A DNA stretch of 64,000 nucleotides. Origin: Fimbriimonadales bacterium (GTDB taxonomy: Bacteria; Armatimonadota; Fimbriimonadia; Fimbriimonadales; JABRVX01). The DNA is taken from the NCBI GenBank assembly GCA_045862955.1, contig BTVI01000017.1, forward strand, positions 10,558 through 74,557, given 5' to 3'. How positions within the stretch are numbered: the stretch's first letter is position 1; every line of letters begins with the position of its first letter. Shown one piece after another: positions 45,401-51,400 of the stretch. Position numbers: made by a program.

Positions 45401-48400
45401 GTATGGCGGGAAGCTTCTGGGACGAGGCCTGATGCTCGCCAACGGCAATGAGCCGGAGGACGCGCTGCGAGGTATCACCCGGGCTATCAGCGAGCGAGAC
45501 GAGCTGACCCTGAGCGTGCCGAAGGTTGCAGGTGGCAAGCCGTTCTGGGCGCTGCTGCCGGGATCGGATTGGGTGCTGGCCGGTGGCAAGCTGCTCGAAG
45601 CGCGAGAGGGAGGTTGGGTGCGACTCGAGCCGACGGCCGATGGGATCACGGCCAAGCGACCGGCGAAGCCATGACAGTCCGTGGTATCGGCATGGACGTG
45701 ATAGAGGTCGTGCGGATACGCCTGGTCCGGGACGACCTGCCACGATTTGCCGGTAGGATATGCACTGCGAGGGAACTCGCCGCCATCGGCTCCGATCCCT
45801 CGGCCCAATCACTGGCGGGAAGGTTCGCGGCGAAGGAGGCAGTGGCGAAGGCGCTCGGCCGACCACTGCGGTGGCACGACGTCGAAGTGTTGCCGGATGC
45901 ACTGGGAAAACCGGTGGTAGCCCTCAGCGGTTCAGCACGGGAGGTGGTAGGAGGCGGCGAGGTTCTGGTCACCATCACGCACACGCGCACCGTGGCGGCA
46001 GCCACGGCTCTTTGGGTGGAGGAGTGATCGAGGGCGCAGCATGGATTTTGGTCCGTTAGTCGTGGGTCCGCTATCACTGCCCACGAGGTACACCCTGCGA
46101 GCCGCGCCCGCTACCGTCATGCTGAGCTTGCCGAAGCATGGCCCCGAACACCACCCACCACCGTCATGCTGAGCCTGTCGAAGCATGACCCCGAACACCG
46201 CCCACCACCGTCATGCTGAGCTTGCCGAAGCATGACCTCGAACACCACCCACCACCGTCATGCTGAGCCTTTCGAAGCATGACCCCGAACACCGCCCACC
46301 ACCGTCATGCTGAGCTTGCCGAAGCATGACCCCGAACACCACCCACCACCGTCATGCTGAGCCTGTCGAAGCATGACCCCGAACACCGCACGCTATCGAC
46401 TTTGGATACCACCATCGCGACAAGCGCCGTCATGCTTCGACAGGCTCAGCAGGACGGCACTGGGACGCTCCTTGGCCCCACCCTCTCCCTCACCACGGGT
46501 AGCGTCCCCTCCGTCTCCACACGCCGCGGTCAGGGCACGCCGAACCCCACCGCCATGCCGAACCGGAGGACGCCTTGAACGGCGAACCACCGGCCGCGCC
46601 CACCACCGTCATGCTGAGCTTGTCGAAGCATGACCCCGACCACCGCACGCTGCCGGCTTCGGATACCACCATCGCGGCAAGTGCCGTCATGCTTCGACAG
46701 GCTCAGCATGACGGCACTCGGACGCCCCTTTGTCCCACCCTATCCCTCACCACGGGCAGCGTCCCCTCCGTCTCCACACGCCGTGGTCAGGGCACGCCGA
46801 ACCCCACCGCCATGCCGAGCCGGAGGGTGCCTTGAACGGCGAGCCACCGGCCCCGCCCACCACCGTCATGCTGAGCTTGTCGAAGCATGACCCCGAACAC
46901 CGCCCACCACCGTCATGCTGAGCCTGTCGAAGCATGACCCCGAACACCGCACGCTACCGGCTTCGGATACCACCATCGCGGCAAGTGCCGTCAAGCGTCC
47001 ACAAACCGACCCAGACCGCCCCACGGCGCGCCGGTGGGGCCCCCCCAACCCCCCACGCAACCGGCTTCGGACACCCCCCTCGCGGCACGTGCCGTCATGC
47101 TTCGACACGCCCAGCATCACGGCACTCGGACGCTCCTTTGTCCCACCCAATCCCTCACCACGGGTAGTCGGAACGGCACCTCGAACCCTCCATCCCACAC
47201 GGCGTCTGGTGGGCCCTCCCTCTCCACACGCCGTGGTCAGGGCACGTCGAACCCCACCGCCATGCCGAGCCGGAGGGTGCCGTGAACGGCGAACCACCGG
47301 CCGCGCCCACCACCGTCATGCTGAGCTTGCCGAAGCATGACCCCGAACACCGCCCACAACCGTCATGCTGAGCTTGTCGAAGCATGACCCCGAACACCAC
47401 CCACCACCGTCATGCTGAGCTCGTCGAAGCATGACCCCGAACACCGCACGCTACCGGCTTCGGATACCACCATCGCGGCAAGTGCCGTCATGCTTCGACA
47501 GGCTCAGCATGACGGCACTGGGACGCTCCTTGGCCCCACCCTCTCCCTCACCACGCGTAGTGGGGACGGGACGTCGAACCCTCCATCCCACACGCCGTGT
47601 GGTGGGCGATCCCTCTCCACACGCCGTGGTCAGGGCACGCCGAACCCCCGATCCCTCAACGCGGGTAGCGACCTCTCCCTCTCCACATGCAGCGGTGACG
47701 GCACGCCGAACCCCACCGCCATGCCGAGCCGGAGGGTGCCGTGAACGGCGAACCACCGGCCGCACCCACAACCGTCATGCTGAGCCTGTCGAAGCATGAC
47801 CCCGAACACCGCACGCTACCGGCTTCAGATACCACCATCGCGGCAAGTGCCGTCATGCTTCGACAAGCTCAGCATGACGGCACTGGGCCCCTCCTTGGCC
47901 CCACCCTCTCCCTCACCACGCGTAGTAGGAACGGCACGTCGAACCCTCCATCCCACACCGCGTGTGGTGGGCGATCCCTCTCCATGCGCCGTGGTCAGGG
48001 CACGCCGAACCCCCGACCCCTCACCACAGGCAGCGGCCTACCTCTCTCAACGGGTATTGGTGAACGCAGGTCGAACCCCGTCGCCATGCCGAACCGGAGG
48101 ACGCCTTGAACGGCCAACCACCGGCCGCGCCCACCACCGTCATGCTGAGCCTGTCGAAGCATGATCCCGAACACCGCACGCTACCGGCTTCGGATACCAC
48201 CATCGCGACAAGCGCCGTCATGCTTCGACAGGCTCAGCATGACGGCACTGGGCCCCTCCTTGGCCCCACCCTCTCCCTCACCACGGGTTGTGGGGACGGG
48301 ACGTCGAGCCCTCCATCCCACACCGCGTGTGGTGGGCTATCCCTCTCCACACGCGGTGGTCAGCGCACGTCGAATCCCCGATCCCTCACCACAGGTAGCG

Positions 48401-51400
48401 GCCTCTCCCTCTCCACACGCAGTGGCGAAGGCACGTCGAACCCCCGATCCCTCACCACGGGTAGGGGCCGTTCCCTCACGGCGCGTAGCCGCCTAGCCTT
48501 CTCAACGGGAAGTAAGCAGGGGACGTCGAATCCCGAGGTGCCGGTGAAATGACGGCAACAGGTGGTGACCCATGAATGCTGAGCGTGCACGTATCGTCCT
48601 AATGGCTTCCGGCGTGTCGCGTGGCAGCAACATGCGAGCGATCATCGCCGCAACGAGGGACGGACGCATCGATGGTGATGTGGTAGGCGCCATCCTCACG
48701 CGTCCCGACTCTCCTGCGGTGGCGATGCTGCAGGAACACGGCGTGCCCGTCACCATCCTGTCCCCAAAGGAACTCGGCGAGCAATACGGGACGAGATTGT
48801 TCGAGACGCTCGCATCCATGCGGCCGGACCTGATATGCCTCGCAGGGTACATGCGGCTCTTGCCAGAGGACGTGGTCCGCGCTTACCCCCGGCGCATCCT
48901 CAACATTCACCCTGCACTGCTGCCGAAATACGGCGGGAAAGGCATGTACGGGGCAAGAGTGCACGAAGCGGTGCTCGCCGCTGGAGAGACCGAGTCGGGT
49001 TGCACGGTGCACTACGTGGACGAGCAGTACGACCACGGCGAGATCCTGCTGCAGACGAAGGTCTCCATTCTGCCCGAAGATACGCCAGAGTCTTTGGCGC
49101 AGCGAATCCTGCCGATGGAGCACGAGACCTACCCGAAAGCCATCGTCCTGGCTCTCGCACGGCTTGACAGGTCCAGCGAGCCTCGGTAGACTGGGCCCAT
49201 CCGGCCCGCGAAGGGGGGAGTGAGATGCGACAAAAGGTTGGAGCCCTACCGGCAGTCCTCGTGGTTCTGGGGGTGTTCCTGTGCGCCGCGGCGGTCTATT
49301 ACTGGCTGGACGAGCGCAGTGTCGCCCCGGCCAACGAGCCTTCCGTGACTTCTGCGATGAGTAAGCTGCAGCAGCTTACTCCCGAGCAGCGCAAAGAGAT
49401 CGGTCGCAAGGCCGAAGAGGCCGCTAAGGGCTATGGGCAGTAGGCGGGGCTTCACCCTCATCGAGCTGTTGGTGGTGGTTGCCATCATCACGTTGCTCGC
49501 GGGCATTCTGTTCCCCGTGTTCGCCCGGTCTCGCGAGGGAGCACGGAAGACCACCTGTGTCAGCAACTGTGGCCAGCTCGGCAAGGCAGTCCTGCTGTAC
49601 GCTCCCGACTTCGCCGAGCGCTTCCCGACGGCCGAGTGCCAAGGTGATCAGGGCAACGCACACTTCGTAGACGGAGGTTCGCGCTACGACCACCCCGAGG
49701 ACAAGTGGTGTCTTGCCGATGCCATCGGGAGATACGTGAAGGGCGATGAGGCCTTTCGTTGTCCGACGCTAACTGCGCGCGTGTACCGTGGCACCGCCCA
49801 TGGCATCGCTAGCAAGGCCGTTACCGGACCCGGCTCGGACGCGAAGGCCAACTACGGTGGCTCCTATATGTACTTCTGTGCGCACATGACGGTGTTCAAC
49901 GACACCGCCTCGCCGCTGGCACTGATATGGTGGGCGCTGTACATGGCAGGGCGGGACATCGCACCCTGGATACAGAACGGCGACACTCCCGAGATGTATT
50001 TCGTATGCGGTAACAAGCTTTCGGCGGTGGCCTCTACTGCTACGAAGCCCCTGCTCATGGAGCGGGCCTGGGGTAGCACCCACGAGGGCATTCCGGCGGA
50101 CAAGGCGTTCGAGCTGTTCATTCCACCTGGGACGGCCGTGCTCGGCTTCCCGACGGCGTACGCGGACGGTCACGCCCGCTACGAGAAACTCGACTTCCCG
50201 CGTGCCGTGGCGCTGTGGGGCAGGAGGAATCGCGATTAGCTCCGCCAAGCCACGCCGCGCTTCGGGAACTGCGAAGCGCCCAGCGGAGTATGCTATATTC
50301 GTAGAAGTGAAGCGTTCGGTACGCATTCTCGCACTCGCGTTCCTGTCGCTGGCTGTGGGCTCGGCAAGCGTGCCGAGTCGCATGCCTGCAGCCGAGTGCG
50401 CCAGTCGAGGATGCGAGATGGGCTGCGGCGCCACCACGCACGAGGTGGTAAGGCATGCCTGCTGCAGCGCGCTCGCCGGCTTCGGCGTCCCCGATGCTGA
50501 GCATGCCGCACAACGATGGGCTACCGGTCCCCAGACCGAATGCCGCTGCATGCGCGCCTTGCCAACAGGCGTTCCCGCGATATCCGAGCCGATTCCACTC
50601 CCGACGGCCTGGGCGGACATCGCATCTGCGCCCGCGGCGCCACACATCGCGCCGGTCTTGCGCGTGCCCATCCCCTTCGCTTCGGACTCGTCCCCGCCGT
50701 GTGCGTCCTCCCATCGGCATCCCTCTCTCCGCGCTCCTCCCACCTCCTCCTAGGCGAGTCGCGTAGCCCTATGCGGGCTGTGCGCCGCCTGATTTGCGTC
50801 TGCTGAAGCGTTCCCGTCGCCCCGGTGGTGTCGTGCCGCCAGGCGACCTAGCCCCGACGGCCCGTCTGCACTTCAGTGCCGGCCGTCACTCGCAGACCCG
50901 AGTGGAGGTGCGAACATGAAAGTTGCATTGTCGTCCTTGCGCCGTCAGTGGATCACGCTGCTGCTGCTCGGAATGAGTGTGCTGGCGGTTCGCTGGATTG
51001 TCGGCACGCAGCGTGCGCCCGGCGCGATGACCATCGTAGAAGCCCAGGCAATGGACATGACGGCGATGAAGGCGCCGGCGGGCGTCTTCCCCGTAGCCGT
51101 GGAAGAGGTTTCCCTGCGTGCCGTCGGCGGCGCGTCGGAATACCCCGGCACGGTCTACGCACTGCAGGACGAGCAGGTCGTGTCCCGCGTCGCCGGGCGG
51201 GTTGTAAGGGTCCCCGTGTACCCAGGCGATCGCGTTTCCGCCGGTCAGGTGCTGGCCGTGCTCGAAGCGAACGAGCTCTCCGCCCAAAGCGGTGCTGCCA
51301 GGCAGATGGCGGCCGCGAAGAGCGCGACGGGTGCAGCCGGGAGAGAAATGGTTCGCGATCGGAGCGCGATGCTGGATGCGGCGCGGTCGAGGGTGAGCGC

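Follow-up and report, generated by a model that had tools for sequence, protein, structure and literature searches.

A CGTC-tagged bacterial hairpin repeat and its probable partnership with a small single-domain GIY-YIG nuclease

The short hairpin repeat dispersed through this Fimbriimonadales genome is probably a CGTC/TC-tagged hairpin of single-stranded DNA that forms the cognate site of a single-domain GIY-YIG nuclease of about 97 amino acids (referred to here as group A), the two together making up a mobile cassette. Hairpin and partner are likely to be a variant of the known CGTC-type repeats with a nuclease pairing like that of Ssn and SRM. Such a variant would widen the Ssn/SRM partnership so as to include a hairpin type invisible to the published pattern, a further nuclease group and at least 12 phyla, and would offer a partner enzyme for more of the CGTC-type repeats, the mobiliser of which was left open in 2013.

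Anatomy and genomic setting of the hairpin

The 13-nt core is present in 715 copies and the exact 25-mer in 629 (435 of the C variant), in agreement with the figure of about 700 given in a preliminary description of this DNA, and a preceding C completes the CGTC tag at 617 of the 629. The stem comprises at least 6 bp (CATGCT/AGCATG), or 8 bp in the minimum free energy fold of a single copy, and the 'loop' therefore spans at most 11 nt, in place of the 13-nt loop on a CATGC/GCATG stem that had been proposed. The repeat is probably laid out as a CGTC tag, a 5-bp stem, tandem G.A pairs, a G-C pair and a 5-nt loop, which gives six canonical pairs or, with the two G.A pairs counted, eight stem positions and a 5-nt loop. 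With such pairing the 13-mer is probably mostly stem and not the open loop that a protein was thought to read. The base after the stem is A in 364, C in 249 and G in 96 of the 715 copies, and a conserved CCA tail is absent.

Covariation analysis of 58 stem variants around the fixed 11-nt core showed pairing at 94% for positions -3/+3 (47% when shuffled) and at 96% for positions -4/+4 (59% when shuffled); as a count of pairing-filtered hairpins is circular for this purpose, it was repeated unfiltered. Only two to three stem pairs vary freely, and the stem of this genome, found in 16 of 149 distinct contexts, belongs to the two most frequent. The letter identity of the 25-mer across phyla is thus less remarkable than it first appeared, because only two to three stem choices must match. 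A core that stays constant while its stem covaries freely amounts to an unusually clean natural mutagenesis.

Inverted pairs of 100-108 nt number 140, of which 106 measure exactly 107 nt. Such pairs had been described as having mostly unique interiors; for 54 of 105 107-nt pairs, however, the interior is at least 90% identical to that of another more than 5 kb away. The 107-nt unit has sharp ends, the identity between twin pairs stopping within 2 nt of the tag at 78 of 108 ends. In the 30-nt flanks on each side of 106 pairs the longest shared word, sought as a target-site duplication of the MITE kind, equalled that of the control, and flanking inverted repeats around the 107-nt pairs showed no excess. 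Nor did a fixed junction offset emerge as a candidate cut site, the shared 5' sequence declining from 0 nt onwards without a distinct peak; an offset of 4 nt was seen at 9 of 108 ends against 3 in the control. Rfam returned no family at gathering score; the best match, RF02901, scored the same 45 bits on either strand, its gathering score being 97, and was taken as a generic long hairpin and rejected as an identity.

By a hexamer gene model 680 of the 715 copies lie outside genes and only 35 inside, far fewer than the 161 exact 25-mers previously assigned to genes. The 13-mer lies within 300 nt of 59 of the 188 contig ends, in line with the many contig ends noted before. In four public runs from four studies the summed depth of the hairpin bin was 300-400 times that of a unique neighbouring gene, a depth that does not equate to copy number; RNA runs were left aside, as their share was too low to be usable. 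After stop codons 146 copies are in sense and 49 in antisense orientation, a bias that was set aside because dimer geometry yields it.

The repeat cluster upstream of purN

The window, by which we mean the whole 64-kb stretch of DNA analysed, contains 23 exact 23-mers against none in 100 shuffles, which upholds the enrichment first reported, and eight of these fall within 46836-48571. The cluster in the gap upstream of purN was formerly thought to begin at 46836, but it starts at 46115 and extends to 48533 (46115..48533), with 18 tagged hairpins and a second repeat family. It opens with a head-to-tail array of six tagged hairpins on the plus strand (46115..46396) that has a 47-nt period and loop variants. 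There follow a 107-nt inverted pair with one substitution in its right arm (46350..46456), a tag-out dimer of the same length running from CGTC to GACG (46607..46713), two head-to-tail hairpins on the plus strand whose downstream partner arm is degenerate (46864..46939) and three further head-to-tail hairpins (47314..47514), the last of which opens the 107-nt pair at 47408-47514. Two more 107-nt inverted pairs (47773..47879 and 48138..48244) are each found inside a 365-nt higher-order unit. Interleaved between the pairs is the second, looser repeat of about 42 nt, with 15 copies on the plus strand that are often 66 nt apart (46482..48533), so that the cluster is a BIME-like mosaic. Fixed-length dimers and mosaic arrays are familiar from REPINs and BIMEs.

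The purN-like formyltransferase gene (48572..49189, plus strand) lies outside the element and served as synteny anchor. In the congener G001 the orthologous gap is 290 nt long with one inverted pair. The cluster has expanded locally. Similar tandem arrays are formed by other hairpin families in this genome, and the local expansion may for this reason be a host process. Elsewhere in the window there are a second hairpin cluster with five exact 23-mers (16555..16896), a lone exact copy on the plus strand (19575..19597) and a third cluster of five head-to-tail copies, also on the plus strand (63375..63730).

Association with a GIY-YIG nuclease gene

In this genome a GIY-YIG gene truncated by a contig end (C31:3-131, minus strand; 43 residues readable) lies about 40 nt downstream of an exact copy of the hairpin. 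A search of the assembly did not recover the remainder of the gene, but in four runs a unitig of 323-387 nt overlaps C31:1-187, and in runs X1 and X6 it continues beyond the contig end and terminates in an inverted copy. The orthologue in the congener is 79% identical and has copies at -44 (plus) and +315 (minus). The neighbours of the cassette differ between this genome (G000) and G001; the cassette thus occupies different loci in the two congeners. The patchy distribution (2 of 41 relatives) is compatible with the gene cassette having spread horizontally.

The association between gene and hairpin is seen in several counts. In repeat-carrying genomes a nearby hairpin was seen for 19 of the 22 genes of group A, for 3 of 38 Ssn-like genes, for 1 of 9 that are YhbQ-like and for 0 of 28 others. 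A protein-first search without a pairing filter placed the core within 250 nt of 42 of 78 metagenomic homologues, on both sides in 24, and at the metagenome loci there were 105 copies in 38.6 kb of near sequence against 4 in 85.2 kb of far sequence. Within the unselected class of G047, eight or more copies were counted in 10 of the 19 genomes that have group A and in 10 of the 231 that lack it. At viral homologues the core was found in 0 of 43. Y7, Y17 and E64 are invariant in 12 of 12 group A proteins, to which NCBIfam assigned no family, and they align with Y6, Y17 and E64 of SsnA (cd10448), an Ssn nuclease with NTS/SRM repeats of which the mutants Y6A, Y17A and E64A have been tested (in the available part of Chenal et al. 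2025, PMC11893778).

Hairpin and group A are not exclusive partners: a group A gene (at 95 bits or more) is present in only 17 of the 50 carrier genomes, and the same core flanks two CPR genes as well as the Ssn-type genes found in Hymenobacter-like genomes. Several genomes with more than 100 copies are without group A, one of them having a 3.25-Mb contig, and the core is absent near 14 of 21 group A genes in the class of G047 and at 36 of 78 metagenome loci. Among 200 CPR-like genomes group A was found in one, and the 12-mer occurs in 12-20 copies in five others. A small GIY-YIG gene lies within 1.5 kb at just 1 of 80 pattern-scan loci, as would be expected because the repeat is multicopy.

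Such a system would probably work as follows. A group A gene placed between two inverted, tag-out hairpin copies would encode an enzyme that, by analogy with SsnA, may bind the tagged strand when single-stranded and nick it 5' of the tag, at a distance of a few bases. The cassette of gene and flanking hairpins would move among loci and lineages, gene-less 107-nt pairs would be dispersed as non-autonomous units, perhaps by the same enzyme, and each site would later expand in place to give mosaics like the cluster in the window. Much more tentatively, the cassette of about 380 nt may be an autonomous mobile element from a GIY-YIG branch independent of Ssn, whose enzyme recognises a sheared-G.A structure, the 11-nt core of which is pan-bacterial, and also mobilises the gene-less 107-nt pairs. 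Were this true, it would be the GIY-YIG counterpart of RAYT/REPIN and among the smallest self-moving elements. Whether the enzyme moves the repeats or does no more than cut there becomes a testable question in the two congeners, which have 629 and 72 copies, and a small single-stranded DNA nuclease with one conserved target could serve as a tool.

Distribution and alternative explanations

The 25-mer was found in at least 111 stretches of genome_contigs; the 80 matches listed come from 58 genomes and, by record title, at least 12 phyla, about as many as had been described, a count that is approximate because some titles look wrong. Copies of the 13-mer number 2-415 per genome in 50 of those 58, and those of the reversed control 0-3. 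Hymenobacter-like proteins occur in MAGs whose titles name Janthinobacterium and Rhodanobacter. As the carriers are mostly MAGs, contamination or mis-binning might be thought to account for the identity across phyla, but as a general explanation this is refuted: named isolates have 28-164 copies each, as the earlier mention of isolates foreshadowed, the genome's own contamination is 0.27%, copies occupy orthologous sites in the congener at 16 of 25 syntenic loci, and stems covary between lineages. The repeat is not confined to one lineage, and its core is probably maintained by a conserved protein, as was first suggested; the Y1/RAYT-type transposase named for that part was dropped in favour of the GIY-YIG gene that the hairpins bracket. 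Three Y1 genes are present, the dimers are REPIN-like and a GTAG-tagged version of the fold occurs at two group A loci, yet mobilisation by Y1/RAYT is very improbable, there being no copy within 3 kb of the three genes (though one lies 600 nt from its contig end), a CGTC tag instead of GTAG, and, in the available text of PMC3733652, no tyrosine transposase with CGTC repeats at its flanks.

A role as RNA, in which the repeat would stabilise or terminate mRNA and be kept by a host factor with the nuclease link secondary, is somewhat less improbable but still unlikely. Copies favour convergent gaps, being present in 51 of 157, compared with 46 of the 549 co-directional and 12 of the 280 divergent ones, the 107-nt pairs have a folding energy of about -71 kcal/mol as RNA, and transcription of REPs is argued for in the part of PMC3733652 available. 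The gap bias, however, is equally expected if insertion is tolerated away from promoters, the median distance to a stop codon is 191 nt, the bracketing of one gene family would be left unexplained, no Rfam family is reached, and RNA is not bound by SsnA according to the accessible part of PMC11893778. A more serious alternative, if still a doubtful one, is that group A falls within the cd10448 clade or next to it, the hairpin being an SRM missed by the published pattern, with the same mechanism and less novelty. A single clade of group A and Ssn was not rejected (AU test p 0.749) and the tree so constrained scored higher, although none was rejected among A with Ssn, A with others and A alone; some lineages have the same core at Ssn-type genes, and the group A profile gives similar scores to Ssn-like rows (47-75 bits) and to YhbQ-like ones (48-71 bits). 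Against this, full-length group A rows that had been held out score 124-152 bits, well above the 75 bits at most of Ssn-like rows, the C-terminal N-x-x-W/F is found in 5 of 121 group A and 37 of 38 Ssn-like proteins and C-x-D in 116 of 121 and 0 of 38, both free trees join group A with YhbQ-like rows (92/81 and 95), and NTS-like flanks occur at 0 of 121 group A loci. The YhbQ-like profile outscores the Ssn profile for all 107 of 107 held-out group A proteins, a result to be discounted because the group A profile had picked 8 of the 12 YhbQ-like rows.

Comparison with known repeat systems

The suspicion that the repeat belongs to a catalogued class proved sound in so far as CGTC REPs and Ssn/SRM are already described (PMC3733652, PMC11893778). 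In a literature search that included the 13-mer strings and had most subscription papers outside its scope, neither the repeat nor its nuclease pairing was found in print. The core words are likewise absent from the text and four supplements of PMC3733652 as available, where the families CGTC-1 to CGTC-4 were compared by description and not by consensus letters, and a term search of the available supplements of PMC11893778 found neither the core words nor cd10456/UPF0213.

As far as the available text of Di Nocera et al. (2013, PMC3733652) describes the CGTC REP superfamily (CGTC-1 to -4), the hairpin resembles it in its CGTC/TGTC/CCTC tag, in a stem opening in A-T pairs, in head-to-head dimers and in an intergenic position between convergent or co-directional genes. 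These REPs are defined there by a stem of 8-9 bp, a loop of 4-5 nt and a short CCA tail, and the geometry of CGTC-2 (8-position stem, 5-nt loop) is matched if G.A pairs count; the present repeat differs in having no conserved CCA tail and two non-canonical stem pairs, and in that GTTC is the commonest tag near group A genes. The same text reports no dedicated enzyme for CGTC REPs. With REP/REPIN/BIME and RAYT the system shares fixed-length inverted dimers, sharp ends, mosaic arrays and a repeat-flanked enzyme gene, but the RAYT system combines a GTAG tag with an HUH enzyme (PMC3733652, in the part available), whereas here a CGTC tag goes with GIY-YIG and no Y1 association.

Among PDB entries the only sequence matches and the top fold matches of group A are UPF0213 or prokaryotic Slx1-like proteins (1ZG2, 1YWL), matches that cannot separate UPF0213 from Ssn because no Ssn-named structure is among them. 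Group A resembles these proteins in its C-x-D motif and in having no C-terminal Asn (PMC1564403, available part), but YhbQ-like genes, unlike those of group A, are mostly unflanked. This genome also holds a classic Ssn gene (at the ends of C36 and C91) and 18 NTS-like copies, which the published degenerate pattern of SRM finds, while it fits 0 of the 715 hairpin copies. The tandem G.A mismatch in the stem and the fixed 11-nt core likewise set the hairpin apart from SRM, and its main partner is a protein group separable from Ssn by profile score and motifs and without the C-terminal Asn motif. In the part of PMC11893778 available, the likeness to Ssn/SRM nevertheless extends to a single-domain GIY-YIG gene of about 95 amino acids with oriented CGTC-type hairpins at its flanks, to hundreds of dispersed, clustered and intergenic copies, and to a catalytic Tyr/Tyr/Glu at matching positions. 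By analogy, group A and its hairpin are a system that would work as Ssn/SRM and the CGTC REPs do.

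The hairpin repeat and its structure

The preliminary description reported a hairpin repeat of about 700 copies, and its counts could be reproduced: this genome holds 715 copies of the 13-mer TGAGCYTGTCGAA and 629 exact 25-mers, both nested parts of one CGTC-tagged hairpin. The copies form 173 clusters covering 2.2% of the assembly and lie within 300 nt of 59 of its 188 contig ends. In the window 23 exact 23-mers were counted, and 100 shuffles gave none; the local cluster, starting at 46115 and ending near 48533, precedes a purN-like gene, and the gene upstream (45672-46027) is one that we take, from its motif, to resemble a holo-ACP synthase. 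Inverted pairs, measured from CGTC to GACG, span 100-108 nt in 140 cases and exactly 107 nt in 106. With gene calls from a hexamer model trained on the genome itself, 680 of the 715 copies fall outside genes, and copies are present in 51/157 convergent, 46/549 co-directional and 12/280 divergent gaps and in 64 more gaps at contig ends. At least four more dispersed repeat families (43-131 copies each) occur in the genome, for which its three Y1 transposase genes are candidate partners, together with what is presumably a CRISPR repeat (about 49 copies).

Conservation of the hairpin is sharply bounded, beginning at the CGTC tag and stopping past the stem. The 13-nt loop had been thought to be open, but its last T and first A pair, and the sequence within that pair, GA-G-CYTGT-C-GA, has the pattern expected of a tandem G.A/A.G pair, a G-C closing pair and a 5-nt loop. 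Sheared G.A pairing is inferred here on general nucleic-acid chemistry; the ViennaRNA fold leaves the presumed G.A/A.G region open. The tagged strand alone is able to form G.A pairs, the complementary strand having T.C. Covariation was assessed at 177 loci that had been retrieved by protein; every copy of the 11-nt core was taken, whether its flanks pair or not, which gave 212 copies in 149 distinct contexts at 66 loci. In these contexts, uncorrected for relatedness, stem pair -2/+2 is paired in 95% (83% when shuffled), -3/+3 in 94% (47%) and -4/+4 in 96% (59%). There are 58 stem variants around the core, and TC stands ahead of the stem in 124/149 and 131/149 contexts. Since the stem covaries freely and that of this genome is among the two commonest (16/149), identity over 25 nt between phyla takes just two to three matching choices. 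A conserved reader is demanded by the invariant 11-nt core and not by the whole 25-mer.

Small GIY-YIG genes beside the hairpin

A Y1/RAYT transposase had been proposed as mobiliser, and as a partner it was rejected: no copy lies within 3 kb of any of the three Y1 genes. The genome has two small GIY-YIG nuclease genes, both at contig ends. One, split over two overlapping ends (C36:1-149, minus strand, and C91:1-234, plus strand), is a classic Ssn gene flanked by arrays of NTS-like hairpins, of which there are 18 copies genome-wide; the congener has a counterpart at a similar place (L011). The other, on contig C31, begins about 40 nt past an exact copy of our hairpin. Its frame, read to residue 43, is 79% identical over 43 aa to an orthologue in the congener, which is 97 aa long as modelled, is bracketed by a plus copy at -44 and a minus copy at +315, and has a frame that crosses the hairpins with no early stop. 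In public runs of four studies the C31 gene is covered by a unitig of 323-387 nt, at 1.1-1.9x the depth of the unique neighbour, and in two of the runs this unitig extends beyond the contig end and terminates in an inverted hairpin copy. Two nuclease/hairpin pairs within a single genome constitute a natural specificity control.

Group A, the single-domain nucleases of about 97 aa, contains GIY-YIG as its only Pfam family. The predicted fold (pLDDT 81) is closest to UPF0213 and Slx1, and Y7, Y17, G19, R27 and E64 are invariant; the experimentally tested Tyr/Tyr/Glu residues of SsnA occupy the same positions. Held-out full-length members score 124-152 bits against the group A profile, every other group scoring 75 or less, and a C-terminal N-x-x-W/F is found in 5/121 group A proteins versus 37/38 Ssn-like ones. 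Free trees unite group A with YhbQ-like rows, but in AU tests on 93 columns both A+Ssn (p 0.75) and A+others (p 0.56) remain acceptable. By profile score and motif, group A is separable from the NTS-flanked Ssn, to which it may be sister. In many group A genes (L127, L128, L148, L183, L208) the downstream inverted hairpin encodes the final residues (PSTSSG) and provides the TGA stop, so the repeat belongs to the gene end.

Generality of the association

Within the order, 2 of 41 genomes have the 25-mer (629 copies here, 72 in the congener), and it occurs in at least 111 stretches of the genome contig database. The 80 stretches listed derive from 58 genomes that span 12 or more phyla by record title. 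Phylum counts by title are unreliable: the titles of G073 (L062), G061 (L042) and G081 (L076) appear to conflict with genome size or protein content. The 13-mer has 2-415 copies in 50 of these 58 genomes, and since the carriers include named isolates, contamination is not the general cause of this spread.

From these 50 carriers and two relatives, 105 ORFs were taken among the matches listed (28 weaker Pfam matches fell outside), and 8 were dropped as fragments, one duplicate and two long proteins. In these repeat-chosen genomes the hairpin is near 19/22 group A genes, 3/38 Ssn-like, 1/9 YhbQ-like and 0/28 others. As the carriers had been chosen by the repeat, a protein-first test was run: of 548 metagenome loci retrieved solely with the protein, the best 80 were used, 78 of them at 100 bits or more. 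A core lies within 250 nt at 42 of the 78, on both sides at 24, with 105 copies in 38.6 kb near the gene versus 4 in 85.2 kb far from it; no core accompanies any of 43 viral homologues. In an unselected sample of 250 genomes from the class of G047 (titled Alphaproteobacteria), 10/19 with group A versus 10/231 without have at least 8 copies, a threshold chosen post hoc with up to 19 candidates scored per genome and kin genomes non-independent; excluding the unpublished genomes G322 and G497, which enter no other tally, the latter figure is 9/229.

The pairing has its limits. Only 17 of the 50 carriers have group A at 95 bits or more, and several genomes with over 100 copies are without it, one having a 3.25-Mb contig; fragmented assemblies, this genome being an example, do lose such genes. 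In the class sample 14/21 group A genes are without a core, and of 200 genomes from a CPR-like phylum with small genomes one has group A, while five others have 12-20 copies. The same 11-nt core flanks an Ssn-type subclade of Hymenobacter-like genomes (L132, L142, L158, L165, L170) and some CPR genes, so at least two branches of small GIY-YIG proteins share the hairpin type. Group A is the main hairpin-linked branch within the samples examined. At L250 and L253 the same G.A-stem hairpin, but with a GTAG tag, adjoins group A genes and may connect the GTAG and CGTC superfamilies.

Dispersal and a probable mechanism

The neighbours of the hairpin-gene-hairpin cassette differ between the two congeners. 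The gap orthologous to the congener's cassette site (C27:6872-8043) has no nuclease and no core; it is filled with tandemly arrayed hairpins of two unrelated kinds, one of them rich in G-runs and C-runs. Conversely, the congener's gap by the orthologue of our cassette neighbour is empty (about 136 nt), and synteny breaks there too. Of 41 regions examined in the congener 25 are syntenic; 16 of these have cores in our genome also, usually in greater number, and 9 have none (one with a loop variant). The purN gap holds one pair in 290 nt in the congener and 17 cores in 2,522 nt here; the cluster in the window therefore expanded in place. Unrelated hairpins in the genome build like arrays, and local expansion therefore need not involve the group A enzyme. 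Dispersal of a unit with defined ends is shown by the 107-nt pairs, 54/105 of which have a twin of at least 90% identity more than 5 kb away, with identity stopping within 2 nt of the tag at 78/108 ends; in the largest family of interiors, 20 copies are spread over 11 sites. The inverted pairs showed no target duplication. Two sites are filled in the congener and empty here (L421 on its contig C20, L426 on its C36), one with a pair inside inverted flanks of about 30 nt, the other with an insertion ending in an imperfect left-flank copy of about 17 nt; these flanks are possible insertion footprints.

SsnA, as described in PMC11893778, acts on single-stranded DNA and cuts on the 5' side of the tag; its strand specificity would fit a hairpin of which only the tagged strand can form G.A pairs. 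By analogy, we consider it most likely that the nuclease would recognise the tagged strand while single-stranded and cut on the same side, and that repair or recombination at such nicks would spread both the cassette and the gene-less pairs.

Comparison with known systems

Neither the repeat nor the nuclease-hairpin pairing was found in the literature searched, a negative on which the figures of PMC11893778 and PMC3733652 and one supplement may bear. In build the hairpin resembles a CGTC REP (PMC3733652), and by analogy it would work like the Ssn/SRM hairpin-nuclease system (PMC11893778). Since none of the 715 copies fits the published SRM pattern, the hairpin is not classed as an SRM, and it is not placed in a named CGTC family because it is without the CCA tail.
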